Positions 13,913-57,252 of a stretch of 64,000 nt of DNA are shown here, one piece after another. Within the stretch, counting starts at the first letter, position 1. Each line of letters starts with the position of its first letter. The DNA is from Schlesneria sp. (lineage in GTDB: Bacteria; Planctomycetota; Planctomycetia; Planctomycetales; Planctomycetaceae). Under the pieces are notes generated by a model. That model saw nothing but the letters and a program-made list of their open reading frames with translations. It did no database searches and was not told the origin of the DNA. Both the position numbers and the translations under genes were made by a program. Where the stretch lies: positions 20,839 through 84,838 of the forward strand of contig JAYSQC010000294.1 of the NCBI GenBank assembly GCA_043721755.1, written 5' to 3'.

Positions 13913-13942
13913 TCCCGGTCAACTCCTCTACGGGCCTCCTTG

Positions 13943-20400: not shown

Positions 20401-23400
20401 TTCGGATTCCACCTCCGAGAATTCCAACAAACTTCTTCGGTCAGATGGCAAGTGGATTCTCGATTCGGGCACCAAGTCTCAATCGACGAGCAGTGCTTTC
20501 GGAGCGTCCTATTCAGGGGCGGGCGGGGTTACGAGTACCGATCCCAGCGGCTCAATCTCGATCTCTTTCGCGGCCTACGGCGGAGACTCGGAAACGGAGA
20601 GTTCGTCGGAGTCACAGATCGTTGGCTCCAACGGAGAATGGCAATCGGGTGGAGGCACGAGGTCGCGCTCCGCAGGGACTGGTAGCGGCTCTTCGTACTC
20701 GGGCAAAGGATCCTATTCGCCCGGCGGTACCGGTGGAACTTCGATGTCCTTCAATATCGAGTTGAGTGGCGGCAGCACTCTCAACGAGACTTTCTCGGAG
20801 GGCGAATCCAATACCGGCACGGGGGGCTGGCAACTCGTGTCTGGTAGCAAGGGGACATCGAACACGAATGATTCCAACGTCGCCTATTCCGGTGCGGGTT
20901 CCTTCCCGATGGGGGCTGCTGGAGCAGGTTCGATCGTCTTCGATGGCACCGATAACCAAAGCAACTCCTTCAGCGAATCCCAACTCGTCGGGACGGGCGG
21001 GACTTGGAATCTGATGGGCGGAGGGAAATCCAACTCAACGTCTTCTGGCCACAATTTCGTGCTCTCGGGGACAGACACGACTTCCGGTGGAGGAATCTCG
21101 GTCACGACCAGCTTCGCCGCTCATGACATTTCCTCCAATTCCGAAAGCACCTCGGCCAAGGTTTCGAGTTCCCTCGGGATCGGCCCGAACACTTGGGGCG
21201 ACGAAACCGGCTCCAAATCTCAGTCGGATGATTCCGGATTCACATTTTCGGCTAAGGGGGGCGGAACGCAGTCGCTCGCGATCGCTGGCGGCACCATCAA
21301 TGCCGGAATCCTCATCGACATGAGTAGCACGCAAAGCTCGGTTCACTCGGAGAGCCACGATTTGACGGGCGCAGGCTGGCAACCCATCTCAGGGTCGAGG
21401 TCCGAATCGTCGAGTGAATCGTCGAAGATGCAAATGAACGGAACCGGGACGTATACAAGGGGGACCGTCAACGGAACGCTCAATCTGATGAAGATGGATA
21501 CGTCGTCCAACTCGTCGTTCTCGACGGTTGAGTCACTCGGTTCGACGGGAGCGTGGACATTTACTTCCGGCAATCGCAGTGCGGCATCAGACAATGATTT
21601 TCAGTTCACGTATGCTGGAAGTGGAACCTACACGTATCCCGTCGCCGGTGGTCAGGTGGATGGTGGTCTCACGGAATTTGGAAACGCCGACAATACCGAC
21701 AACCACTCCCAATCCGAGTCGATCAATGCGGCGGGAGATTGGCAATTTGACGTGGGGAGCAAATCTCACTCGGCGGGAAATTCGTCCACGTTCAGTTCAT
21801 CGGGGACGGGCACTTATTCATACGCGGTCACTGGAGGCAGCGTCTCCGGAACAATCAATGAAGCGAATTGGTCGACTTCATCGAATAATGAAACGGAGTT
21901 TAATACTCGCGGTTCGATCGGAGGTTGGAGTTCGCTCGGGACAAAAACGAGCGGGACGGCGGGAGGTTCCACACGAGACTTTGTCGGTTCGGGCAGTTAC
22001 TCCATCAACATCCCCGATCCCACTGACGCGAAAAAGAGTGCGGGAAGTGTGTCAGGGAAAATTGATGAGGGCGGCAGTACGAACTCCAACTCCTCCGAAA
22101 GCTTGGGATGGTCGCTCAGTGCCGGTAATGGCTGGCAGCAAGTTTCGGGTTCACGTTCCCATTCCAATGGAAATAGTTCCAACAGCAAGTCTTCCGGATC
22201 GGGAAGCTACTCGTACACCGATTTGGAGAATGCCAACGGCATCTATCGCAGCGTCTCGCACAGTGGCAAAATCGAGGAAGACGCGTCCAGCGACTCCGGC
22301 AGCTCCGCTTCCGACGCCCTGATGTTTTCGACCGCTGGTGTCTGGGTGCGAACGTCCGGGGGGACATCCAGTTGGAATAGTTCACATCAATCATCAAATT
22401 CCTCGGGAACGGGCAAATACACGTTCAATGTCGGTGGAACATCGGCCAGCCCGGACTACAGGAAACTGAGCGGAGATGTCACCGAGAGCCGTTCGAGCCT
22501 CGACGATCAGAGTTATTCGTTAAGCACGACGTTCACGCCGTTCGGCACCTTTGTGACAACCGGCTCGAAGTCGTCCACCGGAAACTGGAGTGACGACAGC
22601 TCCCTCACTGGTAAGGGATCGTACAGCCGCTCCGTCACAGGCGGCTCCGTCACAGGCACGATCACCAGCCACAACCTCTCACGGGGACAGAGTTCAAATT
22701 CCACGGCCGCTTGGGGCGTCGATGCCTTCGGCGGGTGGGTGTTGCTGAGTGGCGTTGCGAGCCAGGCGTCTGACAGCACGTCCAACGAGGCTTGGAACGG
22801 AACCGGAACGTACTCCACATCCAACTCGGTGACAGACCCCGCCACGGGTAAAACCCTGTCGTCGCAGTCGATGAGTGGAACCGTGACCGACACAGGTTGT
22901 GAAGTATATGACTCCGGTGGCAGCAGTTCCGCCTCTAAAGTGAACTCCAGCGGTGAATGGGAACAGACGTTCGGCTATGCGTCGTCCAGCAAGCGTTCCA
23001 AGAACAACTCAACGATGACAGGCAGCGGAACGTATTCCAACAACGCGTGGGGGGACACGACTCGCAGTGTCTCCGGCACGTTGTCGGAGAACTACAACTC
23101 GTCCGTCGAGTCTGAAAACAGTGAATCGTGGGTCTTTATGAAGGCGGCGTTTGCCAGTGACATGGTTCAGGTGTCCGGTACTCGGAAGCTGATTACCAGC
23201 AGCGGCGGGAGCTTCACCAGTGACGGGAGCGGGACGTACAGCCACGGTCAGGTGCAAAATGGCAAGGTGACTCGCGACTTCAGTACTCGTTCGGGATCGC
23301 ATGGGGAGAGCAAGGTCGAGAGCTTTAGCGGGGGCGGCTGGACGCTCACGTGGTCGGGGAGCGATTCCAGCAGCCAGTCGTCGGACAACTCGTACTCGGG

Positions 23401-26377: not shown

Positions 26378-26396
26378 GTAAACAAAGGGGGTCGAA

Positions 26397-26909
26397 GTGA
26401 TTTCGCAAGGCCTTTGGAAAAACGGTGACTGCCTCCAGATCGACTCGGTGCAATTCGGTGATGATTGCGTCGCGATTCTAAAGGTAACTTACCCTCCACA
26501 GTCGTACCTAGACGACCAGAGCATTGTACCGCATGTCTCGATTGAAAAGAGAGAGCCGATATTGGGCGTGATTAGTAACGAGCCTAATCTGCCAAAAGTC
26601 GGACTATGCCCGTCACATTCCGTTGATTTCACATGGAATTCTGAAATTCTTCGATGCCAAGTCGGGGAGGGTAGTGGCTGGGACGGATTCGGATACGTAG
26701 CTGTTTCTCGGGTCGCAGATGACTATTTATACTGGGTGGCATTTTTTGAAAGATCAAATGGTTTCGACCAGGTGTACATTAAAGACAACTCTGTGATTGC
26801 GACTCCGTACCTCGGCTGGGAATATGTATTCGACCTTGCCGCACCGGAGCGAATAAAGATCAGAACGAGCAAATCAAAGGAGACAGATCAAACGGGTCAG
26901 GGGTCGTAA
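26397..26909 (+). CDS. Candidate immunity protein for toxin tip 1
   Basis: The GTG start lies 20 nt after the toxin stop and follows AAAGGGGG. The ORF is 170 aa, lower in GC and has no signal peptide. The assignment rests on position only. Confidence 0.45.
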   Translation: MISQGLWKNGDCLQIDSVQFGDDCVAILKVTYPPQSYLDDQSIVPHVSIEKREPILGVISNEPNLPKVGLCPSHSVDFTWNSEILRCQVGEGSGWDGFGYVAVSRVADDYLYWVAFFERSNGFDQVYIKDNSVIATPYLGWEYVFDLAAPERIKIRTSKSKETDQTGQGS

Positions 26910-26945
26910 ATCTGGAATGTCACATCGCAGCAAACTGGGGAGCGG

Positions 26946-27000
26946 AAAAGGGGACAGGTCCATATTAGGCATTGCGGCTTATATGGACCTGTCCCCTTTT
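26946..27000. terminator. Perfect 20-bp stem / 15-nt loop hairpin
   Basis: AAAAGGGGACAGGTCCATAT-N15-ATATGGACCTGTCCCCTTTT lies 37 nt after the 26909 stop, and the 3' arm ends in TTTT. Confidence 0.6.
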
Positions 27001-27165
27001 GGCTCCCGCTAAATTGCACTCAGAACTGCCTGTTGTATCGACTGGCTGGGCACAGGCAAACGCATTCTTCAAGGCTGAGCGTAGGCAAGTTAACATCGGT
27101 CTTGGTAATGGAAATGCTCTGAGTATTTTTAACAATAACATTGCAGGTTTTAATCAGGTGCCGCG

Positions 27166-27681
27166 ATGACAGACGAAGAAAAAGAGCTTGCGCTTTCACT
27201 TTCTGCCGACGAAATAACCGAGGCCGACTTTTTGCGGATTCTACAAATCGGTCGTGCGGATGTACGCCAGCTAACCTTGCGATTTCTTGAGGAGTCGCTG
27301 GCAACATTGGATCCTGAAGGTGTCGAGTGCGCATTGAACGTTGGTTTTGTGTTCGGCTTCGACACTGAGCATCTCGATGTATTGAGTGCGCTGTCAGATT
27401 CTGAGTGGCATTTCCGTCACGAAGATGTTGTCGAGGCGTTAAGTGATTTACAGTCGCCCCGTACAGTAGATACGTTGTTCAGAGCTGCATTACACCCACA
27501 TGGCTATCTTGATTATGACGAAAGTCGTTCGTTATCAATAAAAGCAATTTGGGCAATCAGCTGTGTTGCAACCCCTTCTGCAATTGAGGCGCTTCACAAA
27601 CTGGCTGCTTCCGATATTGTGCGTGTAGCTGAAGAAGCAAAGCGACATTTGGAGCAGGCCAAAGGAGACGGGACTCTTTGA
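27166..27681 (+). CDS. HEAT-repeat-like protein (immunity-like)
   Basis: The 171-aa protein looks all-helical and has HEAT-like segments (VVEALSDLQSPRTVDTLFRAAL; AIEALHKLAASDIVRVAEEAKRHL). It sits between two toxin modules. Confidence 0.45.
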   Translation: MTDEEKELALSLSADEITEADFLRILQIGRADVRQLTLRFLEESLATLDPEGVECALNVGFVFGFDTEHLDVLSALSDSEWHFRHEDVVEALSDLQSPRTVDTLFRAALHPHGYLDYDESRSLSIKAIWAISCVATPSAIEALHKLAASDIVRVAEEAKRHLEQAKGDGTL

Positions 27682-28931
27682 ATCGCTTAAAAGGGCAACA
27701 CTACAGGAGCCGAAGCCGCTCCCGAAGTTGGTTGGCATCGACTGTTGGTTTGCTCTCGTTGCTGATTGCGGGGGCGTGCTTATGGTGTGCTTTGCCGGGA
27801 TCAGGGCGGGTGGATGCCGTCACCACGCCGTCTGAAGTTCGGCAATACGAGACCAAACGCATCTCACGGATCGTCCCGTTCGACTGGGTGCTGGCGGGAA
27901 ACCCGGAAGGGGAGCGTGATCTTCAGTTTGGCGAGGTCATCCATCCTAAGCAGTGGCGACTGCTGAAACTCGTCGCACCGAAAAAGGGTGGCGGCGAGGC
28001 CGATGTGGACATGGCTCGGCCGCTGACGTGGCTCTATTCGCAGAAGCAGGCCGGTGTGACTGTGCCTGATGAGGCCATCGCGGAAGATGAGGACGACGAC
28101 GACTCACTCATCGCGGTCGATGAAGCACAGCTCGCGGCATTCGATCCACGGCAACTCGTCGGCCGCACGATTTACATCTCAGTCCCCGAATGCGGGATCG
28201 ACGGTCACGCGAAGGTGCTGGCGGTTGAGGACTGCCCGAACCTCAAACCGCGACCTGGACTGGAGTATCAACTCGTCACGGCGACGTTCAAACATCGCGG
28301 GGCGAAAGTCGTCGATGTCCATGTCGCGGGGCTGTCAGCTCCGATCGGCTCGACACCCAATCATCCGTTCTGGTCCGAGGACAAACAGCAATTCGTCCGC
28401 GCCGACACCCTGCAACCGGGCGAACACCTGCGCCAAGCCGACGGCTCACTGACCACCGTCACCGCCGTCATTCCCCGCCCCGGTACCCACAACGTCTACA
28501 ACCTCGAAGTCCACCTCGATCACGTCTACCACGTCGCCAACAACGGCGTGTTGGTCCATAATGGGTCCGCGTGGTGGTGTTACCAAAATCGCGTCGCAGA
28601 GACTTTTGGTTTTACGACCGGTCGAGCTTCAACAGAATTCGTCGGTCAGCTGAAGCCCAAAAGATTCGCCGATGGAGTTTCATCTGACATCACTCACGCG
28701 ATGGAGGCCAAACACATCCATAATTGGAGCCGATCGCCATACAATCCAGCGAACATTCACACCACTGTTGGTGCGCAAAGGCAATTTGGAATGGTTTCTC
28801 AAATGAAAGATCTATCGAACGGATTTCCCAAAGTAACCTATTACACAAATCATTCAGGGATGGCTAATCACCTTCGTGATTTGGCGAGTCGCGCAAATCT
28901 CAGAAATGTTTCAGTTGAATTCCACCCCTAA
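27678..28931 (+). CDS. Orphan TM + HINT-C + alternative toxin tip cassette (PD-(D/E)xK-like)
   Basis: About 880 nt are near-identical to 25090-25985 of the giant gene (WLASTVGLLSLLIAG...NGVLVHNGS). A different 122-aa tail follows, with KRFADGVSSDITHAMEAKH (D...E-x-K). The only start in the track is TTG, so independent translation is uncertain. Confidence 0.65.
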   Translation: MNRLKGQHYRSRSRSRSWLASTVGLLSLLIAGACLWCALPGSGRVDAVTTPSEVRQYETKRISRIVPFDWVLAGNPEGERDLQFGEVIHPKQWRLLKLVAPKKGGGEADVDMARPLTWLYSQKQAGVTVPDEAIAEDEDDDDSLIAVDEAQLAAFDPRQLVGRTIYISVPECGIDGHAKVLAVEDCPNLKPRPGLEYQLVTATFKHRGAKVVDVHVAGLSAPIGSTPNHPFWSEDKQQFVRADTLQPGEHLRQADGSLTTVTAVIPRPGTHNVYNLEVHLDHVYHVANNGVLVHNGSAWWCYQNRVAETFGFTTGRASTEFVGQLKPKRFADGVSSDITHAMEAKHIHNWSRSPYNPANIHTTVGAQRQFGMVSQMKDLSNGFPKVTYYTNHSGMANHLRDLASRANLRNVSVEFHP

Positions 28932-28959
28932 TCCGCGAAGTTCGGCAGGTAACAATGGC

Positions 28960-29364
28960 ATGGCTTTACCAAAAGTAAAAACAAGGAAGCCTCTTCTCGG
29001 TTGTTGGCTTTCGGAACTGATTCAAGCTTCCCGTTTTGTCACACTTAATGAAAATGAAACCGCAAGCGACCTTTTGGGAGATTATGTTGAATATGTGAAA
29101 GACCTTTGTACGGCTGGTGATTATCGTTTTCATCCAATGGTTCAGTGGAACTCCGAGTGTGTTACCACTACTGGAACGAGATACGCTGTTTTGCTGTACC
29201 GCGCTGGCACACCATCGCACATTTATGGGTTCTTGGAGGATTTGTGTAAACGCGACGGAAGGCAGATAGCTGCCTTCCGCGACAACCTGTTTGCGGACGG
29301 AACCGGTTTTACTTGCCCGCCATCGGAATGTGTCGTAATCCAGCGTGCATGGAGGCGGAAATAG
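28960..29364 (+). CDS. Candidate immunity protein for toxin tip 2
   Basis: ATG at 28960 lies 29 nt after the orphan toxin stop (MALPKVKTRKPLLGCW...). The ORF is 134 aa and lower in GC. Confidence 0.45.
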   Translation: MALPKVKTRKPLLGCWLSELIQASRFVTLNENETASDLLGDYVEYVKDLCTAGDYRFHPMVQWNSECVTTTGTRYAVLLYRAGTPSHIYGFLEDLCKRDGRQIAAFRDNLFADGTGFTCPPSECVVIQRAWRRK

Positions 29365-29502: not shown

Positions 29503-31449
29503 CTACGATTCGGCGAGTTCGAGGTAGGGGTCGAGGCCGAGGGAGTGGCACATTTTGGTGCGGGACTTTTCTTGTTGGAGTTGTTGTTTGCGGTGCTTGA
29601 GGTCGCGGGCTTCGACTGTGCGTTGCGTGCGGTGGAAGGTGCGGAGCCAACGGCGGGGGAGTTCGCCTTGGGAGTTGGGGCGGGCTTGAGCTTGGAGGCG
29701 TTTGAGGTGGGCCGGTTTGAGACAGCGGAACAACTCGTCTTCGAGAGAGAGCCAGAACTGGAATGAGCCGGGGTCGCCTTGCCGGGCGGCGCGGCCGACC
29801 AATTGGCGGTCGATACGGCGGCTGGAGTGCATTTCGGTGGCGATGACGTGCAGTCCGCCATTGGCTCTCACGTCTGCGTGCAGGTGAATGTCGGTGCCTC
29901 GTCCGGCCATGTTCGTCGCGATGGTGACTCGTCCCGGCTGACCGGCTCCCGCCACGATCGCGGCTTCCTGTTCGTGGAACAGGGCGTTGAGAATGTGGCA
30001 GTCGATGCCGAGTTCCTTCAGGCTCTGACCCAACGATTCTGAAGCATGAACGGAAGGGGTGCCGATCAGGATGGCTCGACCTGCGTGATGCAGGCGTTCG
30101 ATCTCGGGGATCAGCGCGGTGCGTTTGGCGGCCTGCGTGGCAAAGACGCGGGGCGAGAGACCGCGTCGGATGCAGGGGCGATGCGTCGGGATGACCGTCG
30201 TTTCCGAGTGGTAGGTTTTTTGGAACTCGCGCCGCGCTGGTAGGCCCGTGCCGGTCATCCCGGCCAGATGCTCGTACCGGCGAAAGAACGTCTGCACGGT
30301 GACGCGAGCCGCTTCGCCCGTTTCATCGGTGATCGGCACGCTCTCCTTCGACTCGACCGCCTGATGGAGTCCCGCCTGCCATTTGCGTCCGTCGAGCGTG
30401 CGTCCGGTCCCTTCATCGACGATGGCGATCTCATCGTCGGCGTTGACGACGTAGTCGCGGCCGCGTTGGAACGCGATCTGTGCCCGCAGCGCCTGCTCGA
30501 CGTAGGTGTAAAGCTTCTCCGTTTCAAAGCCACTGAGTAACGACGGCTTGCGGGCGAGGACGATTTTATGAGTTCCTCGATTGGTCAATTCGATGCTCCG
30601 CTGCGCGGGATCGAACTGATAATCGTGACCCGGTTTTAACTGCCGCGAGACCTCTCCACCCCACTTCAAGAGCGCCGTCGTCGCGTCCGAATTCTTGAGA
30701 TTGAGGCCGATAATGAGCGGTGTTCCGGCGTCGTCGATCAACACGCTGTCGGCTTCGTCGATGAGGGCAAAGTAGTGGCCGCGCTGGACCGGTCCCTGCG
30801 GATCGGGAACGTCGTGTGTGAGGAGTGACGGCCGGGGCGGTTCATCCAGTTTCGAGCCGACTTTCAAACGGTCACGCAGGAAATCGAAGCCGATCTCACG
30901 GCTGGTGGCGTACGTGATGTCCCGCCAATACGCGTGCCGCCGTCCTTCCGGTTCGCTCTCAGACAACACACAGCCGACCGTCAGCCCGAGCCGCTCGTAG
31001 ACTGGCCCCATCTGAGCGCAGTCGCGTTCGGCGAGATAGTCGTTGACGGTGACGACATGGCAGCCGCGTCCCGGCAATGCGCGGAGGAATGTGGGAAGGG
31101 TGGCGGTCAGTGTCTTGCCCTCACCTGTCTGCATTTCGGCCAGCCCCCCTTCAAACAGGGCGATGCCGCCCATGATCTGCACGGGGTAGTGTTGCTGGCC
31201 GAGCACTCGTCGCGAGGACTCACGCACCAGCGCATACGCTTCGGGGAGGAGTGACTTCAACGAAGTTCCCGACTTCGCTAGCCAGCGGACTTCGTTCGAC
31301 CGGCTCCGCAATTCCTCGTCGCTGAAATTGGCCAGCGATTCGGACAGCGTGATGACTTGCGAAGCCAGCCCCCGCCAGCGCGAAACTCGCGCCGCCATCG
31401 GCCGTCCGCCAGTCTTGATCCAGTGCCAGAGGGGATTGAGGAGGGACAT
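29503..31449 (-). CDS. Truncated SecA paralog (SecA2-like ATPase, 648 aa)
   Basis: ATG at 31449. SecA motifs are present: QIMGGIALFEGGLAEMQTGEGKTLTATLP, VVTVNDYLAERD, LIDEADSVLIDDAGTPLII, a PPXD-like VDEGTGRTLDGRKWQAGLHQAVESKE, LAGMTGT, MAGRGTDI and RIDRQLVGRAARQGDPG. It lacks the HWD/CTD part of a housekeeping SecA of about 900 aa. Confidence 0.8.
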   Translation of the reverse strand: MSLLNPLWHWIKTGGRPMAARVSRWRGLASQVITLSESLANFSDEELRSRSNEVRWLAKSGTSLKSLLPEAYALVRESSRRVLGQQHYPVQIMGGIALFEGGLAEMQTGEGKTLTATLPTFLRALPGRGCHVVTVNDYLAERDCAQMGPVYERLGLTVGCVLSESEPEGRRHAYWRDITYATSREIGFDFLRDRLKVGSKLDEPPRPSLLTHDVPDPQGPVQRGHYFALIDEADSVLIDDAGTPLIIGLNLKNSDATTALLKWGGEVSRQLKPGHDYQFDPAQRSIELTNRGTHKIVLARKPSLLSGFETEKLYTYVEQALRAQIAFQRGRDYVVNADDEIAIVDEGTGRTLDGRKWQAGLHQAVESKESVPITDETGEAARVTVQTFFRRYEHLAGMTGTGLPARREFQKTYHSETTVIPTHRPCIRRGLSPRVFATQAAKRTALIPEIERLHHAGRAILIGTPSVHASESLGQSLKELGIDCHILNALFHEQEAAIVAGAGQPGRVTIATNMAGRGTDIHLHADVRANGGLHVIATEMHSSRRIDRQLVGRAARQGDPGSFQFWLSLEDELFRCLKPAHLKRLQAQARPNSQGELPRRWLRTFHRTQRTVEARDLKHRKQQLQQEKSRTKMCHSLGLDPYLELAES

Positions 31450-31499
31450 GGGGGAGGGGCTTGGGGAGTCGGGAATGGGGGGACCAAGGAGCCACGGCT

Positions 31500-31529
31500 G
31501 AAGTCCGGCTTTCGGAAAAGGCGGACTTC
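31500..31529. repeat. REP-like palindrome copy (GAAGTCCGGCTTTCGGAAAAGGCGGACTTC)
   Basis: An imperfect copy of the 15628-15657 element, in the intergenic region between the GAF-HlyD and SecA2-like genes. Confidence 0.45.
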
Positions 31530-31547
31530 TCCACCACCGCACGCTCC

Positions 31548-33653
31548 TTACCACCATAGATATTTTTGGGCGAATTCGATCACGTCGCCGAAGAGGACAT
31601 CGCCGAGACAGGAGGTGCCGCAGCCGATGCGGGCGCGGACTTCGGCTCCGATAGCGCGGACAGGGAGCCGAGTCTTATCGAGCGTGGCCCGGGCTTCGAT
31701 GACGCTGCCTTGTGCTTCGGCGGTGACGGTGCGCGTGGCCAGCGAGTTCAAGTTGGCGAAGTAACTTGCCTCGGATTGTGTGAGCAGTCGGTACTCGATC
31801 GGGAGCTGTTGGAAGGGCGGGTTGAGGGTGGAAGGTCGAGGGTTGAGGGTTGAAGCAGAAGCAGAAGAATGTTCTTGCGTGGAGGCTGGCGCTGGTCGCT
31901 CGACTTTTGTCTCTTGGCTCACAGCAGCCAGTCGCTGCTGTTCGACCAAGATTCGTCCGAGTCGATGCTCGGCCACTTCCAGTTCGAGTTGCCAGTCACC
32001 GGTTTCATCCATCACTTGCAGCAACAAGTCACCCCGTTTGACGGGTCGGTTGAGCAACAGTTGCTGGGCTTGAAACGTCGTCACCACACCGGCCAGCGGT
32101 GCCCGCACCGTCAACCGGGCGAGACGATCCTTGAGCACGGTCGCTTGTTGGGCTGCTCCTTCCACTTCGACCTTGGTTTCCACCGCCTTGGCTTGCAGCT
32201 TGAGTTCTTCATCGCGGTTCCCTTGCCGCGCGACATCATCCCGTTGCGCGATCAGGGTCGAGACCAGCTTGCGCTTTTCATGTAGTTGGTTTTCGACTGT
32301 CACCAATTCGGCGGACAACTCGTCGCTGCGAAGCTGCAAGAGGACTTGGCCCGCTTCGACCCGTTCGCCCCCCTGCACGAGCAGCTCGACCACTTGACCA
32401 TCCCACGGCGCGAAGACCTCGCGCTGGATGACGGGCATCAGGCGACCGGTGGCATCGACGCGATAAGGCCAGGGCACGAGGACCAAGGCCGCACTGACGA
32501 CGATCAGCAGCGCGAGACCCGCCGCCGCGAGAGCCAAGCGCCGGCCACGCAGCCACTCCACGAACCGGCCAATGGCTCGCCACAGCGGGAGCAGAAAGAT
32601 CGCGCTGTGCGTCTTGGCATTGAAGACCGCCGCCGCGATGTGATCGACGGCCGGATCGAGTGTACTCAGCAGTTGAGGCGACGGTGTGCTGCTCTGCATC
32701 TGCTCGATGACCAGTGCTCCCAGCGAGCGGCGCGGTTCGCGCACCGGCTTCGCATGGGCCGAAGTCTCTTCGGGCTTGATGAGTCGTTCTGGTTCGAGCA
32801 GCGGCACCAGGATGAGAAATCGCGCCCCACTTTCTTGGATGAACTCGGCCAGCGGCTGTTCGAGTTGCGGAGGCAGGTTGTCGAACGCACCGTCGTAGCG
32901 CAGCGGCTCACCCGCCGCGATGACCTGTCCGGCCAGAGTTCTCATCGTGCGGATCAGGTTGCCACGCGGATGAACCGACTCTTGACCGCTCACCGCCGTC
33001 ACCACGCTCTTCCGTCCGCGACGCAGCACCAAACTGACCCGATCCACGCCGAACAACAGCCGTCCGTCGTTGACCGCCACGCCCGCCACTTCGTTCACAT
33101 CCAGCGACCGTTGCAGTTGGTGGATGAAACTCAACAAGGCCCGCGCATCGACCGGTCGCGAAACGGGCTGTTGAGGCTCTGCTCCGCTCAGAGAGACCAG
33201 CGGTGGGTGAGGTGCCTGTGCCTGCGGAGCAAGCGTTCCTGCTCGTAACCTCTGGCCCAACTCGACTCCTCGTTGCGCCAGATATTGCAACTGGCCGTCA
33301 CGCTGCTGGGATGGCAACTCCGATTGCTGAGCGATCAGCATCACGCCCTGTTTGTCGCCGGCCCGAAAGGGGCTGAACAACAGCGTCACTTGGCGCTCCC
33401 GAGGAACATCGACCAGAGTCGAAGTCGCGATGGCCAAAGGGCGTCCAGCCTTGAGAGCCTCCGACATTCCGGTGGCCAACAGCGTTCGCACCGATTCAAA
33501 CTCGGCAAGGCCGAGGCGATCCAAGTTGTCACCGGAGATAGGAACCAATTGGTTCGACTCAGCCAGCCAAATGCCGCCGCCGAGAGCTTGAAGCTCAAGA
33601 ACGACGAGCTTTAGGAACTCGGTCCCAGTTCGGAGTTGAACTTCGTCGGGCAT
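31548..33653 (-). CDS. Tandem GAF-like domains + TM helix + HlyD-type periplasmic adaptor
   Basis: ATG at 33653 (MPDEVQLRTGTEFLKL...). There are two GAF-like blocks, a TM helix (LALAAAGLALLIVVSAALVLVPW), then a lipoyl-like/coiled-coil adaptor (APWDGQVVELLVQGGERVEAGQVLLQL...APLAGVVTTF). The 879-aa track ORF would overlap the upstream gene by about 460 nt. Confidence 0.7.
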   Translation of the reverse strand: MPDEVQLRTGTEFLKLVVLELQALGGGIWLAESNQLVPISGDNLDRLGLAEFESVRTLLATGMSEALKAGRPLAIATSTLVDVPRERQVTLLFSPFRAGDKQGVMLIAQQSELPSQQRDGQLQYLAQRGVELGQRLRAGTLAPQAQAPHPPLVSLSGAEPQQPVSRPVDARALLSFIHQLQRSLDVNEVAGVAVNDGRLLFGVDRVSLVLRRGRKSVVTAVSGQESVHPRGNLIRTMRTLAGQVIAAGEPLRYDGAFDNLPPQLEQPLAEFIQESGARFLILVPLLEPERLIKPEETSAHAKPVREPRRSLGALVIEQMQSSTPSPQLLSTLDPAVDHIAAAVFNAKTHSAIFLLPLWRAIGRFVEWLRGRRLALAAAGLALLIVVSAALVLVPWPYRVDATGRLMPVIQREVFAPWDGQVVELLVQGGERVEAGQVLLQLRSDELSAELVTVENQLHEKRKLVSTLIAQRDDVARQGNRDEELKLQAKAVETKVEVEGAAQQATVLKDRLARLTVRAPLAGVVTTFQAQQLLLNRPVKRGDLLLQVMDETGDWQLELEVAEHRLGRILVEQQRLAAVSQETKVERPAPASTQEHSSASASTLNPRPSTLNPPFQQLPIEYRLLTQSEASYFANLNSLATRTVTAEAQGSVIEARATLDKTRLPVRAIGAEVRARIGCGTSCLGDVLFGDVIEFAQKYLWW

Positions 33654-33727
33654 GGTGTGACTTGAAAGAGAACGGGAAAAATGTGAGTGGTCTCGGTTGT
33701 TGGCTGACCGTTGGCTTCCGCCGCAGA

Positions 33728-35953
33728 TCACATTCGGAAGTGGAACGTCCGACGGATGTATCTCCACGCCCAACCGAAGACGGAGCGTTTCGCGGCAATG
33801 AAACGGGCGTTGCCGCGCAGGTTGGGCTTGAGCAGATCGGGCGCTGCGCTGAGGTGAACCGTCGCCTGATAAGCGGCGTCTTCGAGTTGCTCCCTCCCTT
33901 CTTGATCCGTCACGGTGGCGAGCGATCCGCCATGTTTGACCGACAGCGATTCGGGGGCAAAGTCGGATTGCGCCGTCGCAATCTGTGAGATCGTTCCGCG
34001 AAAGACGCGATCGGGCAGATGATCGAACTTCAAACCGACCGGCATTCCCAGCGTCACATCGTGGCGGTCGGCCTGATCGAGATAGAGGAGCGCTTGCATC
34101 GTGCTGGCCGGGGCAATGCTGAGTAAATGCGTCCGTTCGTCGAAGATGCCACCGGCGTTCTTCGCATCCAGCGGCGTGCCGGTCCAACCGACGAGCCGCG
34201 TGCGGAGTTGTTCCAGCTTCGGTGCCGGAATTCTCGGCGGCGCGACGATGGTCCCCGCGCAGGGAGCGACAATTTGCAGATGCTTCCGTTGCGCTGCCAC
34301 CTCGGCCAATTGCTCGTTGACGGAACTCAGGCTCTGCTCGGCCATCGCACGACTGCCGGGATCATCCGTCACTTTGGCGAGATGGAGCGCCTTGCGTTGG
34401 ACCTCATGTGCCACGAGCAGTTGCCGAGAGCGGTCCTCCAGTTTGGGATCAAACAGTTCAGCGAGGAGTTCTCCCGCCGAAACCAGATCACCGGGCTTTA
34501 CGTGAAGTGCCACCAATTCACCGGGCACCTTGGTCAGCACATGCCGCACGCCGTGCGGTTCGATTACGAACGCTGCCGAACCGAACCACGGAACCGGAAC
34601 CGTTCCCAATGCCGCAATCACGGCCAGCAAGACCGTCGCAGTGAGCGCCACACGCCACTTCTTGATCGGATGTTGCCGCGGTACCGCGAACAGTTGATAT
34701 GACTTCATTCCCAATCTCCACACCACACCACACACCGACACGGCCGCCAGAGTTTGACCGACGCTCTGCAACCCATATGGCTTGAGGACCGTATAGAGGA
34801 ACGTCAGGATGCCGAACAGCACGACCCAACCGTAGATCGTGGAAGCCAAGGCGAACAGTGCGAACCAGTGGAGACCGGTCTGCGGCATGAACGGATCGGG
34901 CCGAGGTTCCACGCCGAGACAGACTCGCGCCACCGTCTCTTGAAACAGTTTGTCCGCCTTCTGCCGCAGGTTAGGGATTTCGAGGAAGTCGCCCAGCATG
35001 TAGTAGCCATCGAGTCGCATGAGCGGATTCGCGTTGAAGATCACGGTCGTGGCGGCGGTCACAAAAAACAGGTTCAAGCAGAGGTAATGCAGCAGTCCCG
35101 GTGACGTGAGCCACCAGACGAAGATGGCCGCCGCTGAGAGGACGATTTCAATGATCATTCCCGCCGCGCCGATCAGAATGCGTTTCCATTTGTTCTTGAG
35201 CATCCAAGAGTCCGACACGTCGCAATACAGACACGGACTGCCGACGAGCAGCATCACGCCCATCTCATGACACTCGCTGCCGAACATCTTGCATGACAGC
35301 CCGTGACCGAACTCGTGAATGATCTTCGCCCCGGCCAGCGTCAGCCACAGAAAGATCAGGTTGGGCCAGCCGAAGAACTGGTTGAACGCGGGCAGCCGAC
35401 TCTGAAACGTCTGAAACTGCGTCGCCAACAACGCCCACGAGGCCAGCACGAAGAGACTCGCCAAGAACGCCGTCACGGGATGAAACAGCCATCGCGTCCA
35501 CGGCAGCATTCGCGCCAGCAACGCATCCGGATCCCAGCCCGGCAGTCGCAACGACAGGATGTTGGTTAATACGCTCCAAATTTGTTGTCGCCGTTTCTTC
35601 CGACGCTGTTCGATCCGCGCCATCGCCTGCCCCGGACGAACACCATACGCGAGACCTTTCTGATGCAGGTCGGCCACCAACTGCTGCACATCGGTCAGAG
35701 TGGGGCTGAGTGCGGGGAACTCGCGGATCAATTCGTCGCGGATCGACTCCAGATGCCGCTGCCCGTCGAGCATCTGCCACACGCGATACTGATCGCACCG
35801 CAGCATGTGGTACGTGAGGCCCACCGCATCCTTGACCATGAAGTGCGCGACTCCGCGAAACTCCATCCGCTTAACAATCAGATCGCCCCGCCCGCGCAGC
35901 GGCACCGGGCGCTGCGACGAAGGTGTCTGTTCGGAAGGGAGTGCGAGAGACAT
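33728..35953 (-). CDS. PqqD/RRE-like domain + M50 (site-2 protease) membrane domain + HlyD-type adaptor fusion
   Basis: The N-terminus is YRVWQMLDGQRHLESIRDELIREFPA..LTDVQQLVADLHQKGL (PqqD-like pattern). HEFGHG (HExxH) and NANPLMRLDGYY (S2P NxxPxxxLDG) sit within a multi-TM region. The C-terminus has VPGELVALHVKPGDLVSAGELLAEL, a coiled coil and a barrel. Confidence 0.75.
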   Translation of the reverse strand: MSLALPSEQTPSSQRPVPLRGRGDLIVKRMEFRGVAHFMVKDAVGLTYHMLRCDQYRVWQMLDGQRHLESIRDELIREFPALSPTLTDVQQLVADLHQKGLAYGVRPGQAMARIEQRRKKRRQQIWSVLTNILSLRLPGWDPDALLARMLPWTRWLFHPVTAFLASLFVLASWALLATQFQTFQSRLPAFNQFFGWPNLIFLWLTLAGAKIIHEFGHGLSCKMFGSECHEMGVMLLVGSPCLYCDVSDSWMLKNKWKRILIGAAGMIIEIVLSAAAIFVWWLTSPGLLHYLCLNLFFVTAATTVIFNANPLMRLDGYYMLGDFLEIPNLRQKADKLFQETVARVCLGVEPRPDPFMPQTGLHWFALFALASTIYGWVVLFGILTFLYTVLKPYGLQSVGQTLAAVSVCGVVWRLGMKSYQLFAVPRQHPIKKWRVALTATVLLAVIAALGTVPVPWFGSAAFVIEPHGVRHVLTKVPGELVALHVKPGDLVSAGELLAELFDPKLEDRSRQLLVAHEVQRKALHLAKVTDDPGSRAMAEQSLSSVNEQLAEVAAQRKHLQIVAPCAGTIVAPPRIPAPKLEQLRTRLVGWTGTPLDAKNAGGIFDERTHLLSIAPASTMQALLYLDQADRHDVTLGMPVGLKFDHLPDRVFRGTISQIATAQSDFAPESLSVKHGGSLATVTDQEGREQLEDAAYQATVHLSAAPDLLKPNLRGNARFIAAKRSVFGWAWRYIRRTFHFRM

Positions 35954-35997
35954 GGAATTGGCTTTGGACGTGGAGTATCGACGGTAGGCAAGTGGCC

Positions 35998-36029
35998 GAA
36001 GTCCGGCTTAGCTTTGTCAGCCGGACTTC
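35998..36029. repeat. REP-like palindrome copy (GAAGTCCGGCT-N10-AGCCGGACTTC), with an extra half-site at 36039-36048
   Basis: A perfect 11-bp inverted repeat in the intergenic region between the HlyD adaptor and the M50-HlyD gene. Confidence 0.5.
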
Positions 36030-36086
36030 CTTCGAGGTGCGGACTTCCGCCGATATGGTCTTTTCCCTCTGGCCAAAAGCCAACAG

Positions 36087-37010
36087 CTATTCCGCAAGTT
36101 CAATCACCATCTCGGCCATCAATCCGCCACGCAGGATGTTGTCGCGATTCTCGACTTCCGCCCAGACACGTGTCTCGCGGGTCACGGGATCGACGGTGAC
36201 ATCGACGAACGTCACTCGCCCCACGAACTCTTCGGCGGCGGCGGGAGGACTGAAGTCAGGATCGTTCAGCTTCACACGCACCTTGAGCTTCGGCTTGATC
36301 GCTCGCACATCGGACAGAGCCACACGCCCCTCGATCCGCACGCGGTCGATATTGACCAGCTCCAAAATCGGGTCACCCTGTCGAACGGCTTCGCCGGGAT
36401 GCTTATAGACCCGTGTCACGACGCCCGAGAACGGAGCGATCACCGAATGCGTGGCCAGTTCGGCACGAGCTTGGTCCGCCGTCAGCTTGTTCAACGCGAG
36501 TTCGTTCTCGGCCTGCTCGATCGCCAATACTGTCTTATCGGCCGCGAGCCTTAGCTTTTCGATCTCGAGCTGCGCGACCGCCACCACGGTTTGTTTTCCC
36601 TCCCCCTTCGACTTCGCCGCCGCTTTCTCATTGGCTTCGACGTTCTTCTGATATTCGACCTCGGCCAAGTCGCGGGCTTTCTGGTTGAACCGGACATCGA
36701 CATCGTTCGACGCCTTCTTCTCGGCCACCGCCAAATTGGCGCGAGCCACTTCATCGGCGATCAGCACCACTTGCTGCCTAGCCTCGACCGCGTCTCCTTC
36801 GTGAAATTCGACCGACCTCAACACCCCCGACCGATCGCAGGCTAGAGTCACCTGTCGAATCAACACGATCCGACATTCGGGCACTCGAACATTCTTCGAT
36901 GCCGTCGGCGTGGACGGTTTTTCAGCGGCTGAGGCCACCGAAGTCATGACGACGAACGTGAGTGGCAACAGTAGGGACGGCTTCCGAATGGGCATGGATG
37001 GAGACTTCAA
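36087..37010 (-). CDS. HlyD/MFP-family periplasmic adaptor with a signal peptide
   Basis: The signal-like N-terminus is SLLLPLTFVVMTSVASA. Lipoyl half-motifs are GVLRSVEFHEGDAVEARQQVVLI and APFSGVVTRVYKHPGEAVRQGDPILEL, with a long coiled coil between them. Confidence 0.7.
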   Translation of the reverse strand: MKSPSMPIRKPSLLLPLTFVVMTSVASAAEKPSTPTASKNVRVPECRIVLIRQVTLACDRSGVLRSVEFHEGDAVEARQQVVLIADEVARANLAVAEKKASNDVDVRFNQKARDLAEVEYQKNVEANEKAAAKSKGEGKQTVVAVAQLEIEKLRLAADKTVLAIEQAENELALNKLTADQARAELATHSVIAPFSGVVTRVYKHPGEAVRQGDPILELVNIDRVRIEGRVALSDVRAIKPKLKVRVKLNDPDFSPPAAAEEFVGRVTFVDVTVDPVTRETRVWAEVENRDNILRGGLMAEMVIELAE

Positions 37011-37296
37011 GGGATTGAGATGCGGAAGGGCAATGTGGCGGTCCGTGCGAACCGGATTTCAGAGAGGTCATCGGTGCTCGCGAGACTACTGTCGCCCGTC
37101 ACGGGAGTCGAGCCTCGTTCTGGGCGGCACTGATGCGGTTCGCGATGACAATCCGTCCGCGATCAAGGTAAGCGCCACGCGGAAGGATGTGTCGTGGCGG
37201 TGTCTCGCGATCACAGGCTGTCCGATCAATTCATGTCCCGGCAACGCGCTGCGCGGCAGTTCCCGCCGAAGCTCACCACCTTAACCCACAGCCATA

Positions 37297-39432
37297 ATGA
37301 TCAGTCGCCCGAAGACTGTTGTTTTATCGGCTGAGTCCCGTGAGCCGGATGGACCCTGTTGTGGTGCGCTGATACATCACGCGCCATCGAAATCGTGCCT
37401 CATTCGCTGCGGTTCAGCAGCCGTTGTTTCATTCCGCTTCCACTCCCATTTCGTTCCAAGATCAGCGACCGACATCGTGCGTGCCGCCGCAAACAGAGTG
37501 CGCTGGGCGAGGGGTCACATCGACTTCTGGGGAGTGGTCCGCGCGGTATGCTTGGGCGCTTGCCTATCGTTGGCCTGTGGGCTGTTTTGCGGGTGTGCCG
37601 CCTGGAAATCGCGTGAGCCTCGGACAGAGAATCCCGTCGCAAACCATTACCTGCGCATCGCCGAGCAGATCGAATATCCCGATGCGGAATCGGGACGTGT
37701 GACGGCTCAACCCAGCCTCGGTCAAACACGACCGCTCGTGGAACCGAGGCCCGAGGAACGGTGGCCCATTTCGCTGATGGAAGTGATTCAACTCGGACTC
37801 CAGAACAGCGATCTCATCCGACAGAACGCGCAGTTCCTCTCGCCGGGGAATCCGTTGCTGGCCAATGCCGACGCCGTCCCCTCGATCTACGACATCGAGA
37901 TTCAGAACAATGGCGTGCTGTTCGGTACGCGCGGGATTCACGCGGCGCTGTCCGATTTCGATCCGCGCCTCATCACCAACATGAAGTGGGGACGGGATGA
38001 AAACGCGCAAAACAACGGGTTGCTTTCGGGAGGCATTCCGGCCGGTGGCATCCTGAATGAAGACAACGCCCTGTTTCAGTCGCGGCTCGAACAGCAACTA
38101 CTCACCGGCGGAACGTTCGCGGTCAGTCACGACTGGAACTATGCGCTCAACAATCAGCCGAACCGTTTGTTTCCGTCAGCCTACACCGGAACACTGGGCG
38201 CTGAATTGCGCCAACCTCTCTGGTCCGGGGCCGGTCAGGAATTCAACGCGATCGCCGGTCCGTCTTCGCAACGGGCGCGCGGCTTCAGTTACGTAAATCA
38301 AGGGATCGTCATCGCGCAGATCAACGGTCGCCTGTCACAGATCGACTTTGAAGAGAATCTCCAAAACTTCGTGCGTGAAATCGGCGACCTGTATTGGGAT
38401 CTCCATCAGGCATGGCAGGAGTACATCGCCGAGTCAGCCACTGCCGAAGCCTCTCAGAAACTGTGGGATGAGGTGCAAGCCAAGTTTCATGCCGAACTGA
38501 TCGGTGGGGCTGAAGAAGCCCAGGCGGAGGACACTTTTCATGAAGCGGTCGCACGCAGAGACTTGGCGCTCGCGACGTTCTTTCAGACCGAATCCAGACT
38601 GCGGCGACTCCTTGGCCTGCCCATCGATGACGACAAACTCCTCTTTCCGAGCGATGTCCCGATCAAACAGGAAGTGACTCAAGATCGGGCAACATGCCTC
38701 TTCGAGGCTTATCTCAACCGACTCGAACTGCGCCGACAGAAGACAAACATTCAGAGCCTCGAACTGCAACTGGCCGCCGCCCGCAACTTGGCCCACCCGC
38801 GACTCGATGTCGTGGCTGGATACCGGCTGAATGGATTCGGTGATGAACTGATCGGGGATCACACCGCTGATGGCGTGTCGAAACAAGGGTTTCAGAGTGC
38901 GTACGGAGCACTGATGCGAGCCAATCAAACGAGTTGGGATTTGGGGGTGGAATACTCGATCCCGCTCTGGATGCGCTCCGAACGGGCACAGGTCCGGCAA
39001 CTGGAACTGCGACTCCTCAAAGCACGCACCGTACTGGCGGCACAAGAAGACGAAATCGCCCACGAATTGCACGCGGTCTTTCAGACGATGCAACGCTGGC
39101 TGCGATCCGCGCAAACCAACAAACGCCGCTACCTCGCCGCCAACCGCCGCGTCGAAGCCGCCTCGTCCGAATACCACGACGCCGGACGAACGGGCATCGA
39201 CCCGCTGCTGCGCGCCGAAATCAGCCTGACTCAAGCCCAAGTCGCCTACCACCGCAGCGTCGCCGAATACAACAAGTCCCTCCGCGAACTCCTCTACCGC
39301 ACCGGCCGCCTCCTCCACGAAGAAGGCATCACCCTCCTCGACCCCACCGGCCAGCCAACCCCAGCACAACAGCCGCCTGAATTCCCCTCAACCGCCCCCA
39401 TGCTCCGCAACGAATCCACCCGCGACGAATAG
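37297..39432 (+). CDS. TolC-like outer membrane efflux protein
   Basis: It is divergent from the adaptor operon. There is a Cys-rich lipobox-like leader (LACGLFCGCAAW). Two OEP-type repeats are present (ISLMEVIQLGLQNSDLIRQ..., CLFEAYLNRLELRRQKTNIQSLELQLAAARN...). The start codon is uncertain. Confidence 0.7.
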   Translation: MISRPKTVVLSAESREPDGPCCGALIHHAPSKSCLIRCGSAAVVSFRFHSHFVPRSATDIVRAAANRVRWARGHIDFWGVVRAVCLGACLSLACGLFCGCAAWKSREPRTENPVANHYLRIAEQIEYPDAESGRVTAQPSLGQTRPLVEPRPEERWPISLMEVIQLGLQNSDLIRQNAQFLSPGNPLLANADAVPSIYDIEIQNNGVLFGTRGIHAALSDFDPRLITNMKWGRDENAQNNGLLSGGIPAGGILNEDNALFQSRLEQQLLTGGTFAVSHDWNYALNNQPNRLFPSAYTGTLGAELRQPLWSGAGQEFNAIAGPSSQRARGFSYVNQGIVIAQINGRLSQIDFEENLQNFVREIGDLYWDLHQAWQEYIAESATAEASQKLWDEVQAKFHAELIGGAEEAQAEDTFHEAVARRDLALATFFQTESRLRRLLGLPIDDDKLLFPSDVPIKQEVTQDRATCLFEAYLNRLELRRQKTNIQSLELQLAAARNLAHPRLDVVAGYRLNGFGDELIGDHTADGVSKQGFQSAYGALMRANQTSWDLGVEYSIPLWMRSERAQVRQLELRLLKARTVLAAQEDEIAHELHAVFQTMQRWLRSAQTNKRRYLAANRRVEAASSEYHDAGRTGIDPLLRAEISLTQAQVAYHRSVAEYNKSLRELLYRTGRLLHEEGITLLDPTGQPTPAQQPPEFPSTAPMLRNESTRDE

Positions 39433-40282: not shown

Positions 40283-40882
40283 TCATGAGCCTTCGTGGGT
40301 ACGTTTGCCCTGATGAGTTGCCCAACGCGAGATCAGTTCGCCTCGCGTTGACACTGACAGCGTCTTGTAGATCGCCTTCGCATGGTCATGCACGGTAGCG
40401 ATGGTGATGCCCAGACGCGCTGCGACTTCCTTTTCAATGAGCCCTTGCACAAATAGGTCGAACACTCTGCGCTGGCCAGGTGTAAGGGGCGGAGCCTTCG
40501 ATTCAATGTCGCCACTTGCTGCGACTGGAAAGCTGGCCGAGCGAGTTGAGTCATCGGTACTCACGGTCTCTCTGACGGCTTCCACAATACCGGTGCAGAC
40601 CTTGAGCAGATACGGTCTGATGAGCACTTCAGTTCCACCACCGAATGCCTCGTCGCAATGAAGCAGACGCCCATTGAGGCGCGTACCGTTCCGACTCCCA
40701 AGGTCGCGAATTCGACAGCCATTCTCTGTCTTCAACAGGAGTGCGTGCTTCCGTGACACAAGGAGATCCGGGAGCCTGATCCCGCAGTCGTCATCACGGC
40801 CGATGACCGTCTCCGCAGCATCCAATTCCTGAATGCGATCGAACATCGATTCGTGACGAATCACGACATACAACTGGCCCAT
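40283..40882 (-). CDS. FHA-domain / LuxR-type HTH transcription regulator
   Basis: The FHA part is ETVIGRDDDCGIRLPDLLVSRKHALLL...IRDLGSRNGTRLNG. The LuxR HTH part is LTPGQRRVFDLFVQGLIEKEVAARLGITIATVHDHAKAIYKTLSVSTRGEL. Confidence 0.8.
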   Translation of the reverse strand: MGQLYVVIRHESMFDRIQELDAAETVIGRDDDCGIRLPDLLVSRKHALLLKTENGCRIRDLGSRNGTRLNGRLLHCDEAFGGGTEVLIRPYLLKVCTGIVEAVRETVSTDDSTRSASFPVAASGDIESKAPPLTPGQRRVFDLFVQGLIEKEVAARLGITIATVHDHAKAIYKTLSVSTRGELISRWATHQGKRTHEGS

Positions 40883-52532: not shown

Positions 52533-52535
52533 TTG

Positions 52536-56793: not shown

Positions 56794-57252
56794 CAGTCCG
56801 TCAGCGAGACCGTGCTGGGGATGGCGATGGTGATCAATTCATTGATGGCCCGGCCGAGGGCCTTACCGAATAGCAGTATTCGCCGACGCTCTTCCGGCTT
56901 CGTGTGGACCCCTCCACCCAATCGGCTACGTAGGCGATCAGGGGCAGCAGGGGGTGGAAAAGTTTGGCCATCGGTGTATTGTGTGTTCTCGCATTCTGGA
57001 AGGGATTTCACATTCGTTGTATCCCGCTTTGTGTAGGAGAAAAGGCCCGAGACCGATGATCGATACAGGCCATCTGTGACAGGTTCTGTGACGGCATTCC
57101 AGACCGCGCAGAGCATCCGGTTCGGAGACCGACGGCCGATTCCTGTCACAGTTGTTGTCACAGAAGCCTTGATAAAAGATGGAAAACATCTAAAAATCTG
57201 CAATGTGTGGAAACGCCGAGAGCGTTGCCCGTGACAGAGATTCCCCTTGTTT

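Follow-up and report, generated by a model that had tools for sequence, protein, structure and literature searches.

A truncated SecA paralog beside HlyD-type adaptors, an M50 protease fusion and a TolC-like protein in Schlesneria sp.: a candidate member of the secondary SecA_DEAD module

The published module and related systems

A gene module that joins a SecA-derived ATPase to adaptors of the HlyD family was predicted by genome comparison (Kamneva, Poudel and Ward, PLoS One 2015; PMC4452313), and we describe here a cluster of five genes of this kind at positions 29503-39432 of a 64-kb stretch of Schlesneria sp. DNA. This whole 64-kb stretch is called the window, and window coordinates are positions in it. 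In the published module, "secondary SecA_DEAD domain proteins" that lost the wing-scaffold domain are encoded next to three HlyD-domain proteins, one of which has a weak Peptidase_M50 match and membrane helices and another a GAF domain; an OEP gene adjoins them in some cases, and an ABC transporter is absent. The module was found in five phyla, Planctomycetes among them, and its hosts include Rhodopirellula baltica, Blastopirellula marina, Pirellula staleyi, Planctomyces brasiliensis, Phycisphaera, Verrucomicrobium, Coraliomargarita, Methylobacterium, Ruegeria pomeroyi, Magnetococcus, Nitrosospira, Bordetella avium, Achromobacter, Desulfococcus, Desulfomicrobium and Nitrospira defluvii; unlinked components also occur elsewhere within the same genome. 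The SecA_DEAD protein was proposed to be the ATPase, the M50 membrane domain was suggested as a possible pore, and the GAF protein was regarded as regulatory. The sole experimental data in that genome comparison are a re-analysis of Methylobacterium extorquens microarrays.

Other described systems share some of these parts. Classical type I secretion (HlyB-HlyD-TolC) and the PCAT/NHLP exporters likewise combine an adaptor with a TolC-family channel, and PCATs couple leader cleavage to export; the window adaptors match the type_I_hlyD and NHLM_micro_HlyD models weakly (type_I_hlyD below its cut-off). The window module differs from both in that it has no ABC protein, an M50 metalloprotease instead of a C39 cysteine protease, three adaptors rather than one, and a SecA paralog as its candidate ATPase. 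The periplasmic parts of the adaptors resemble those of MacAB-TolC, AcrAB-TolC and EmrAB-TolC, but the module has no pump of the MacB, AcrB or EmrB type. Accessory SecA2 systems (mycobacterial SecA2; Gram-positive SecA2-SecY2) also employ a second SecA with a reduced C-terminal region, presumably for special substrates. The truncation of the window protein is, however, far more severe, since the protein has lost the whole wing together with the two-helix finger and the C-terminal linker; SecY2 and Asp genes are absent, it is encoded with adaptors, an M50 protease and an OEP protein, and its hosts are diderm. The HExxH leader proteases (NF041824 and NF058609) of ribosomally synthesized and post-translationally modified peptides (RiPPs) share with the window protease a homologous membrane domain and intact HExxH and LDG motifs, and upstream of these the window protein has a marginal match to PqqD, a candidate RiPP recognition element (RRE). 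The window protein nevertheless scores below both cut-offs and is fused to HlyD, and no RiPP enzymes, precursor or ABC exporter are found nearby.

The five genes in the window are arranged divergently, four on the minus strand and the OEP gene on the plus strand, as follows.

29503..31449, minus strand: short SecA paralog ("secondary SecA_DEAD protein"), 648 aa; assigned by Pfam, NCBIfam, motifs and the ratio of nonsynonymous to synonymous substitution rates (dN/dS)
31548..33653, minus strand: GAF-GAF-transmembrane (TM)-HlyD adaptor (GAF-HlyD), 701 aa; assigned by HlyD_3, hydropathy, an AlphaFold model and relatives
33728..35953, minus strand: fusion of a PqqD/RRE-like N-terminus (marginal match), an M50 (HExxH) intramembrane metalloprotease and HlyD (M50-HlyD), 741 aa
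36087..37010, minus strand: periplasmic HlyD/RND-type adaptor with a signal peptide (small HlyD), 302-307 aa
37011..37296, no strand: divergent intergenic region, presumed from the gene layout to be a shared promoter region
37297..39432, plus strand: TolC-like outer-membrane factor (OEP), maximal open reading frame (ORF) 711 aa, start uncertain

The initial annotation of this DNA had named the same five genes, and each was found in the place and with the content given there. Of its domain calls, those of SecA_DEAD, PPXD, Peptidase_M50, HlyD and OEP were recovered with Pfam and NCBIfam, whereas GAF was not detected in the window's own protein. Some starts differ from those of the maximal ORFs. 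The SecA ORF extends to 684 aa, and the start common to relatives is M37, which gives 648 aa. The maximal ORF of GAF-HlyD (879 aa) overlaps the upstream gene and is too long; the 701-aa form fits the relatives, and a database protein (P0241) is 100% identical to the window protein. The small HlyD adaptor probably starts at M6 (position 36995) to give 302 aa rather than the 307 aa of its maximal ORF; its relatives have 302-303 aa. A consensus scan of the cluster for promoters and terminators gave a site count not above shuffled expectation and does not inform on operon structure. The nearest relatives of the window are two contigs of metagenome-assembled genomes (MAGs) labelled Schlesneria, with protein identities of 91-96% (L013) and 77-95% (L016).

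The features of the published module recur here: a SecA without SecA_SW, an M50-HlyD protein with TM helices, a GAF-HlyD and a separate HlyD protein, no ABC gene, and a divergent OEP gene. From this shared architecture, the neighbours and the planctomycete origin, we infer that the locus is a member of the secondary SecA_DEAD/type I-like module of Kamneva et al. It does not differ from that module in kind, having the same parts, the optional OEP gene, no ABC transporter and the same functional proposal. The initial annotation knew of no described secretion system with this composition; the module, with the same roles proposed for its parts, is already in PMC4452313, and the hypothesis is an independent rediscovery of a published prediction. 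The result for the window is thus mainly the correct annotation of a known, functionally uncharacterised module, a refinement rather than a discovery. The present analysis adds the PqqD/RRE-like N-terminus (PqqD is not mentioned in the paper), the invariant catalytic motifs and the full-length resemblance to RiPP leader proteases; it also maps exactly where the SecA is truncated and shows several rearranged gene orders among Planctomycetaceae.

The cluster was also said initially to encode no ABC, RND or MFS pump, and this was borne out: Pfam detected no such domains in the large window ORFs scanned, and tblastn of the 64-kb window with one ABC exporter query (from L010) gave no match. With the same single query, an ABC exporter was found within 10 kb of the module in only three of about 45 loci with the M50 fusion (L010, L046 and L070). 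A hidden conserved pump was therefore rejected as a candidate, none being conserved in the Pfam scan of the large window ORFs or in the one-query ABC search over the window and all loci. In L010 (Schlesneria sp. DSM 10557), a PTH2 gene comes after the HlyD/M50-HlyD pair, and next is a 679-aa ABC_membrane+ABC_tran exporter (12986-15025), about 0.8 kb from the pair, with neither GAF-HlyD nor SecA nearby; this exporter could be an alternative energiser or a coincidence.

Domain architecture of the encoded proteins

SecA is composed of NBD1, PPXD, NBD2, scaffold helices, the wing, the two-helix finger (IRA1) and the C-terminal linker. The window paralog matches SecA_DEAD (2.8e-99), SecA_PP_bind (1.3e-25) and P-loop_SecA (5.3e-54), and no SecA_SW (wing-scaffold) domain was found in the Pfam scan. 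The Walker A motif (GEGKT109), DEAD231, TNMAGRGTDI512 and the arginine-finger motif (GRAARQGDPG552) are all present. Alignment with Bacillus subtilis SecA covers residues 13-603 only, and the protein stops about 20 residues later. Because the alignment stops at about residue 603, the short SecA lacks the two-helix finger (IRA1) as well as the wing domain and the C-terminal linker/tail. As judged from the same alignment, it keeps NBD1, PPXD, NBD2 and the first long scaffold helix, inside which the family ends. The initial reading of intact Walker A/B and arginine-finger motifs with a missing C-terminal wing region thus agrees with both the motifs and the alignment. Hydropathy indicates no TM helix in this protein.

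The C-terminal end of the short SecA should be noted. Short SecAs form a large family in Planctomycetaceae, in which the best 120 matches are 619-709 aa long and nearly all are 627-653 aa. A C-terminal tail, (M)GLDPYLEL(A/T)E(S), is conserved in the family, and the window copy ends with GLDPYLELAES (29503-29540). This tail might serve as a peptide by which the short SecA docks onto a partner. It is also retained in copies unlinked from the module (the tail is seen across L001-L030), and in the most distant copies (L040 and L042) it is replaced by LGWSFTLEHYEDD.

The dN/dS values of the short SecA against relatives are 0.14, 0.14 and 0.08. The housekeeping SecA models TIGR00963 and PRK12904 score 625-642 bits against cut-offs of 800-814 and are matched only to about 612 of 787 model positions, and the SecA2 models TIGR03714, TIGR04221, TIGR04397 and NF012136 score 395-617 bits against cut-offs of 725-1100, none of which is reached. 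Its motifs, dN/dS, length, tail and these sub-cut-off NCBIfam scores set the short SecA apart from housekeeping SecAs, from pseudogenes and from the named SecA2 families. A pseudogenised housekeeping SecA, which the initial annotation had set out as a possible undoing of its hypothesis, is ruled out by the intact motifs, the dN/dS of 0.08-0.14, and the conserved length and C-terminal tail. PADLOC found no defence-system match for SecA or M50-HlyD.

The 741-aa fusion matches PqqD (25.0 bits; cut-off 23.4), Peptidase_M50 (29.2 bits; cut-off 27.2; 7.2e-07) and HlyD_D23 (38.1 bits; cut-off 30) in Pfam, with HlyD_3 also matched, and hydropathy indicates at least five hydrophobic (TM) helices. In its AlphaFold model, strands and then three helices occupy residues 19-98, the membrane helices fall within 142-450 and the adaptor has its hairpin at 503-557; the best Foldseek matches of the model are MacA, EmrA and MexA. 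When a profile of the N-terminus was compared with the PDB, the best natural match was a PqqD structure (3g2b), which is weak (E=0.014). The motifs of the protease are HEFGH213 and NANPLMRLDG307, and residues H213, E214, H217, N307, P310, D315 and G316 (HExxH, NxxPxxxLDG) are invariant in 45 M50-fusion sequences. Residues 90-416 match the NCBIfam model daptide_HExxH (NF041824) over 318 of 379 model positions (3.3e-53; 181 bits against a cut-off of 300), and the YydH/LiaK epipeptide protease model (NF058609) is matched at 1.9e-10 (41 bits against a cut-off of 225). These scores place the fusion as a relative of the daptide protease family NF041824 and not as a member. The M50 protease is probably active and directed at peptides, because the HExxH/NxxPxxxLDG motifs are invariant, similarity extends to the daptide and YydH/LiaK proteases, and the N-terminus is PqqD-like.

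HlyD domains were found by Pfam in all three adaptors. GAF-HlyD matches HlyD_3 (4e-12) and has one TM helix at 375-393 by hydropathy. GAF was undetected by Pfam in the window protein itself; it was found in 9 of 14 relatives, including a 68%-identical one (P0247) with GAF_3 at 20-147 and GAF at 186-342. The AlphaFold model (pLDDT 87.4) comprises two GAF-like alpha/beta domains, placed in the cytoplasm, one membrane helix, and a periplasmic membrane-fusion domain with a long alpha-hairpin at 444-512. The best Foldseek matches of the periplasmic parts of the two modelled adaptors (M50-HlyD and GAF-HlyD) are MacA, AcrA, MexA and EmrA, and searches with the whole-protein models gave adaptor structures only, among the 50 matches listed. 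As modelled, the adaptors are genuine, because of these matches and the predicted alpha-hairpins. The small HlyD adaptor has a hydrophobic N-terminal signal peptide and matches HlyD_D23 (1.1e-15), HlyD_3 (1.9e-13) and RND_mfp (7.2e-25), the last with 87.6 bits against a cut-off of 94.9. The OEP protein matches OEP in two stretches (3.3e-23) and type_I_sec_TolC at 3.3e-12 (below the NCBIfam cut-off), and a lipobox-like segment lies at about residues 88-100. An OEP homolog adjoins the module in L005, L006, L016, L022, L023, L028, L030, L035 and L037.

Gene order among relatives and the proposed function

We scanned GTDB genomes with an alignment of GAF-HlyD, which gave 59 loci, and mapped the five proteins in them by tblastn and ORF clustering. 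The triad of GAF-HlyD, the HlyD protein of about 300 aa and M50-HlyD is kept from Schlesneria/Planctomicrobium to Rubripirellula at 28-38% identity. The short SecA is directly adjacent to module genes in six gene orders, with identities from 91% down to 46%. In the list of these orders, ">" is a plus-strand gene, "<" is a minus-strand gene, and SecA identity is to the window copy.

Window, L005, L013, L016: HlyD> M50> GAF> SecA> (SecA 90-91%)
L022, L023: GAF> SecA> <M50 <HlyD <OEP (SecA 66%)
L025: <M50 <HlyD GAF> <SecA (SecA 59%)
L030: <OEP <M50 <HlyD GAF> <SecA (SecA 55%)
L011: SecA> <GAF M50> (SecA 56%; found by the M50-anchored look-up)
L040, L042: SecA> HlyD> M50> GAF> (SecA 46%)

In three of the six orders, SecA and a module gene converge, their stop codons 6-55 bp apart; the adjacency is therefore kept even without co-transcription. 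By our own estimate, which assumes a genome of about 6-7 Mb, two given genes are adjacent by chance in about 0.1-0.4% per lineage, and the association of SecA with the module is well above chance. Because the adjacency survives six rearranged orders and identities down to 46%, it argues for a functional link between the short SecA and the HlyD/M50 module. The initial annotation had named a lack of such synteny as refuting its hypothesis, and with the recurrence of the short SecA beside GAF-HlyD, M50-HlyD, HlyD and OEP genes the hypothesis is not refuted on this ground. An accidental adjacency had been considered when four of five SecA-anchored contexts were found without the module, and was dropped after the scan of 59 loci; in the SecA-anchored look-up at 90% identity (L005-L007), the gene order is that of the window.

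The only additional recurrent neighbours are a DUF3467 protein and an unnamed protein of about 150 aa, which are essentially confined to Pirellulaceae and both absent from the window. The DUF3467 protein (about 125-135 aa; Pfam 2.3e-20) directly follows M50-HlyD in 21 Pirellulaceae loci and L025; examples are in L041-L071 (L054 14903-15406), L025 (3267-3704) and L030 (16029-16391). It may correspond to the "cluster 5" hypothetical proteins beside the M50 gene in the 2015 paper (B. marina DSM3645_23880 and Psta_0856). The other protein (about 130-190 aa, without a Pfam match) contains a CxxC motif (…RVRCVECGHP…) and is divergent from GAF-HlyD, upstream of it, in 28 Pirellulaceae loci among L041-L071 (e.g. 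L043 9097-9570); it has no window homolog. In L060, a Planctomycetota MAG, a second and shorter GAF-HlyD-like/M50-HlyD-like pair (283-4017; 27% identity to the window M50 fusion) lies 5 kb upstream of the canonical triad, and the module has therefore diverged paralogs.

The reading that we favor, though with reserve, is that the module spans the envelope and both processes a peptide or protein and exports it, with no pump of the ABC, RND or MFS type. From domain content, topology, motif conservation, purifying selection and gene neighbourhood, we infer the following interactions and transport. The PqqD/RRE-like domain of the 741-aa fusion would bind a leader-bearing substrate in the cytoplasm, and the short SecA, with an ATPase core and PPXD clamp and with the SecY-inserting parts lost, would drive unfolding or threading with ATP. 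The M50 membrane domain would cleave the leader and form or line the inner-membrane path. The three HlyD-type adaptors (M50-fused; GAF-fused with a single TM helix; soluble) might form a mixed periplasmic sleeve that docks on the TolC-like channel, and the two cytoplasmic GAF domains might gate the system on a small-ligand signal. The PqqD/RRE-like N-terminus, the invariant motifs and the similarity to RiPP leader proteases suggest leader-guided peptide processing coupled with export. We propose only tentatively a distinct secretion class whose dedicated motor would be the short SecA, and in which an RRE-guided M50-adaptor fusion would replace the ABC transporter of type I secretion and cytoplasmic GAF domains would provide the gating.

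If this proposal is true, the short SecA would have no known precedent as a SecA homolog that functions independently of SecY, nor the fusion as an M50 protein that serves as an export conduit. The PqqD/RRE-like domain and the RiPP-protease similarity narrow the search for substrates to leader-bearing peptides or proteins. Among the module hosts, Methylobacterium extorquens, Ruegeria pomeroyi and Bordetella avium are genetically tractable. The prediction in PMC4452313 is ten years old, and no experimental test of it was found in the literature searched; if it is true, diderm bacteria would have a new way to secrete, in which a SecA-derived ATPase takes the place of an ABC, RND or MFS pump in powering export across the envelope, and SecA and M50 proteases would each gain a new role.

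Several points weigh against pump-free export driven by the short SecA. The linkage of SecA to the module is not obligatory. SecA is unlinked in copies of 72% (L008/L009), 69% (L003), 62% (L001/L002) and 61% (L004) identity, and about 30 Pirellulaceae loci have no SecA within 10 kb of the triad. In Schlesneria proper, GAF-HlyD stands alone beside a MoxR/DUF58/BatA-type operon identified by eye (L017-L021, L024 and L026), the HlyD/M50-HlyD pair is elsewhere (L010), and SecA is at yet another place. The assignment of the N-terminus as PqqD/RRE-like is marginal at 25 bits and E=0.014 against the PDB. M50/site-2 proteases are, to our knowledge, not known as export channels. A pump of the ABC, RND or MFS type might be encoded elsewhere in the genome, unlinked to the cluster, the pump search having covered the 64-kb window. 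When ORFs of 25-110 aa within 3 kb of the module were clustered over all loci, no conserved precursor-peptide gene was found; recurrent small-ORF clusters had been considered as precursor peptides, and every one of them was an out-of-frame shadow of a larger gene. RiPP-modifying enzymes were likewise not found nearby in the window. The literature search, with most subscription journals outside its reach, gave no follow-up to PMC4452313 beyond one self-citation.

Export might instead proceed in two steps, with the short SecA serving as an accessory SecA2 that, together with the housekeeping SecYEG, moves a dedicated substrate or the module's own membrane proteins across or into the inner membrane, after which the adaptors and the TolC-like protein carry a periplasmic intermediate through the outer membrane; the M50 protease would trim the substrate. 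In canonical SecA, the two-helix finger and the scaffold insert into and dock on SecY, as in SecA-SecYEG structures such as 3DIN, but the short SecA has neither the finger nor most of the scaffold domain. Furthermore, neither SecY2 nor accessory Sec genes were found by Pfam in the large window ORFs scanned. The paralog is nonetheless a true SecA homolog with a PPXD domain, the SecA2 proteins of Actinobacteria, which have reduced wing domains, are placed as the sister clade in the phylogeny of PMC4452313, and adjacency alone does not prove physical coupling to the M50 protein. We consider such a two-step route unlikely, with some weight nevertheless.

The unlinked SecA copies in many genomes also bear on a different arrangement, in which an unlinked ABC, RND or MFS pump or the proton-motive force drives HlyD, M50 and TolC, and the short SecA is a frequent neighbour with a separate or regulatory role. 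The ABC_membrane+ABC_tran gene at about 0.8 kb from the HlyD/M50-HlyD pair in Schlesneria DSM 10557 and the near-cut-off RND_mfp score of the small adaptor (87.6 against 94.9 bits) would fit with it. However, SecA stays adjacent through six gene orders, and does so across five phyla according to PMC4452313, against a chance expectation of about 0.1-0.4% per lineage (our own estimate), while only 3 of about 45 loci have an ABC gene close to the module. This arrangement therefore appears quite improbable.

M50 enzymes classically act in regulated intramembrane proteolysis, and with two GAF sensor domains present and an FHA+LuxR regulator about 0.85 kb beyond the OEP gene, the module might serve in signalling, where GAF senses a ligand, M50 cleaves a membrane-anchored regulator and HlyD acts as a scaffold. 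Three full alpha-hairpin adaptors with a TolC-like partner imply a trans-envelope duct instead, no conserved anti-sigma/sigma pair accompanies the module, and the FHA+LuxR gene is not among the conserved neighbours, so that we regard a signalling role as very unlikely. The initial suggestion of a dedicated exporter for the 2965-aa Big_9/PT-HINT polymorphic toxin next to the cluster hardly survives: the toxin genes do adjoin the SecA gene on its downstream side, and giant secreted-type proteins also adjoin module or short-SecA genes in L001/L002 and L011, but the closest relatives (90% identity) carry a UvrA-like 2798-aa gene at the toxin position, the giant neighbours at other loci belong to different, non-homologous clusters, most loci have no giant neighbour, and the G+C content of the toxin region (0.50 against 0.60) is typical of a variable cassette.

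Neighbouring genes in the window

The region on the SecA side of the cluster contains the following toxin genes.

17480-26377: Big_9 + PT-HINT toxin, 2965 aa
27678-28931: orphan PT-HINT cassette

They belong to a polymorphic-toxin array at 17480-29364, which also contains small ORFs without a Pfam match and a HEAT-repeat ORF, and in which the G+C content falls to 0.50 at 26-28 kb. The array has the appearance of a toxin gene accompanied by immunity genes and spare C-terminal cassettes. In L005 (11190-19586), L006 and L016, the giant gene (about 2800 aa) downstream of the short SecA encodes repeated UvrA_inter, UvrA_DNA-bind and ABC-type ATPase domains, an unusual multi-UvrA fusion.

At the far end of the window, PADLOC identified a defence island at 49980-63964. 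It comprises a CARF/STK-AAA pair (49980-52532 and 52533-53648), a lone DruA (53649-55037), GajB (60976-62877; 3.6e-224) and GajA (62867-63964). GajA matches only model positions 234-597, and its N-terminus is therefore missing from the ORF as listed. A Schlafen/AlbA_2 protein is encoded at 58095-59501. Near the opposite end, a TrwC relaxase fused to an AAA_30 helicase (TraI-like; 3148-5817, minus strand) points to an integrative or conjugative element on the upstream side of the region.

Downstream of the OEP gene, the FHA+LuxR regulator (40283-40882, minus strand) is followed by a run of probable secreted hydrolases that extends to 48632. These are an M4 thermolysin with an FTP propeptide, a dienelactone hydrolase, an EEP-family nuclease/phosphatase and, last of the run, an Endonuclease_NS-trypsin fusion at 46524-48632.

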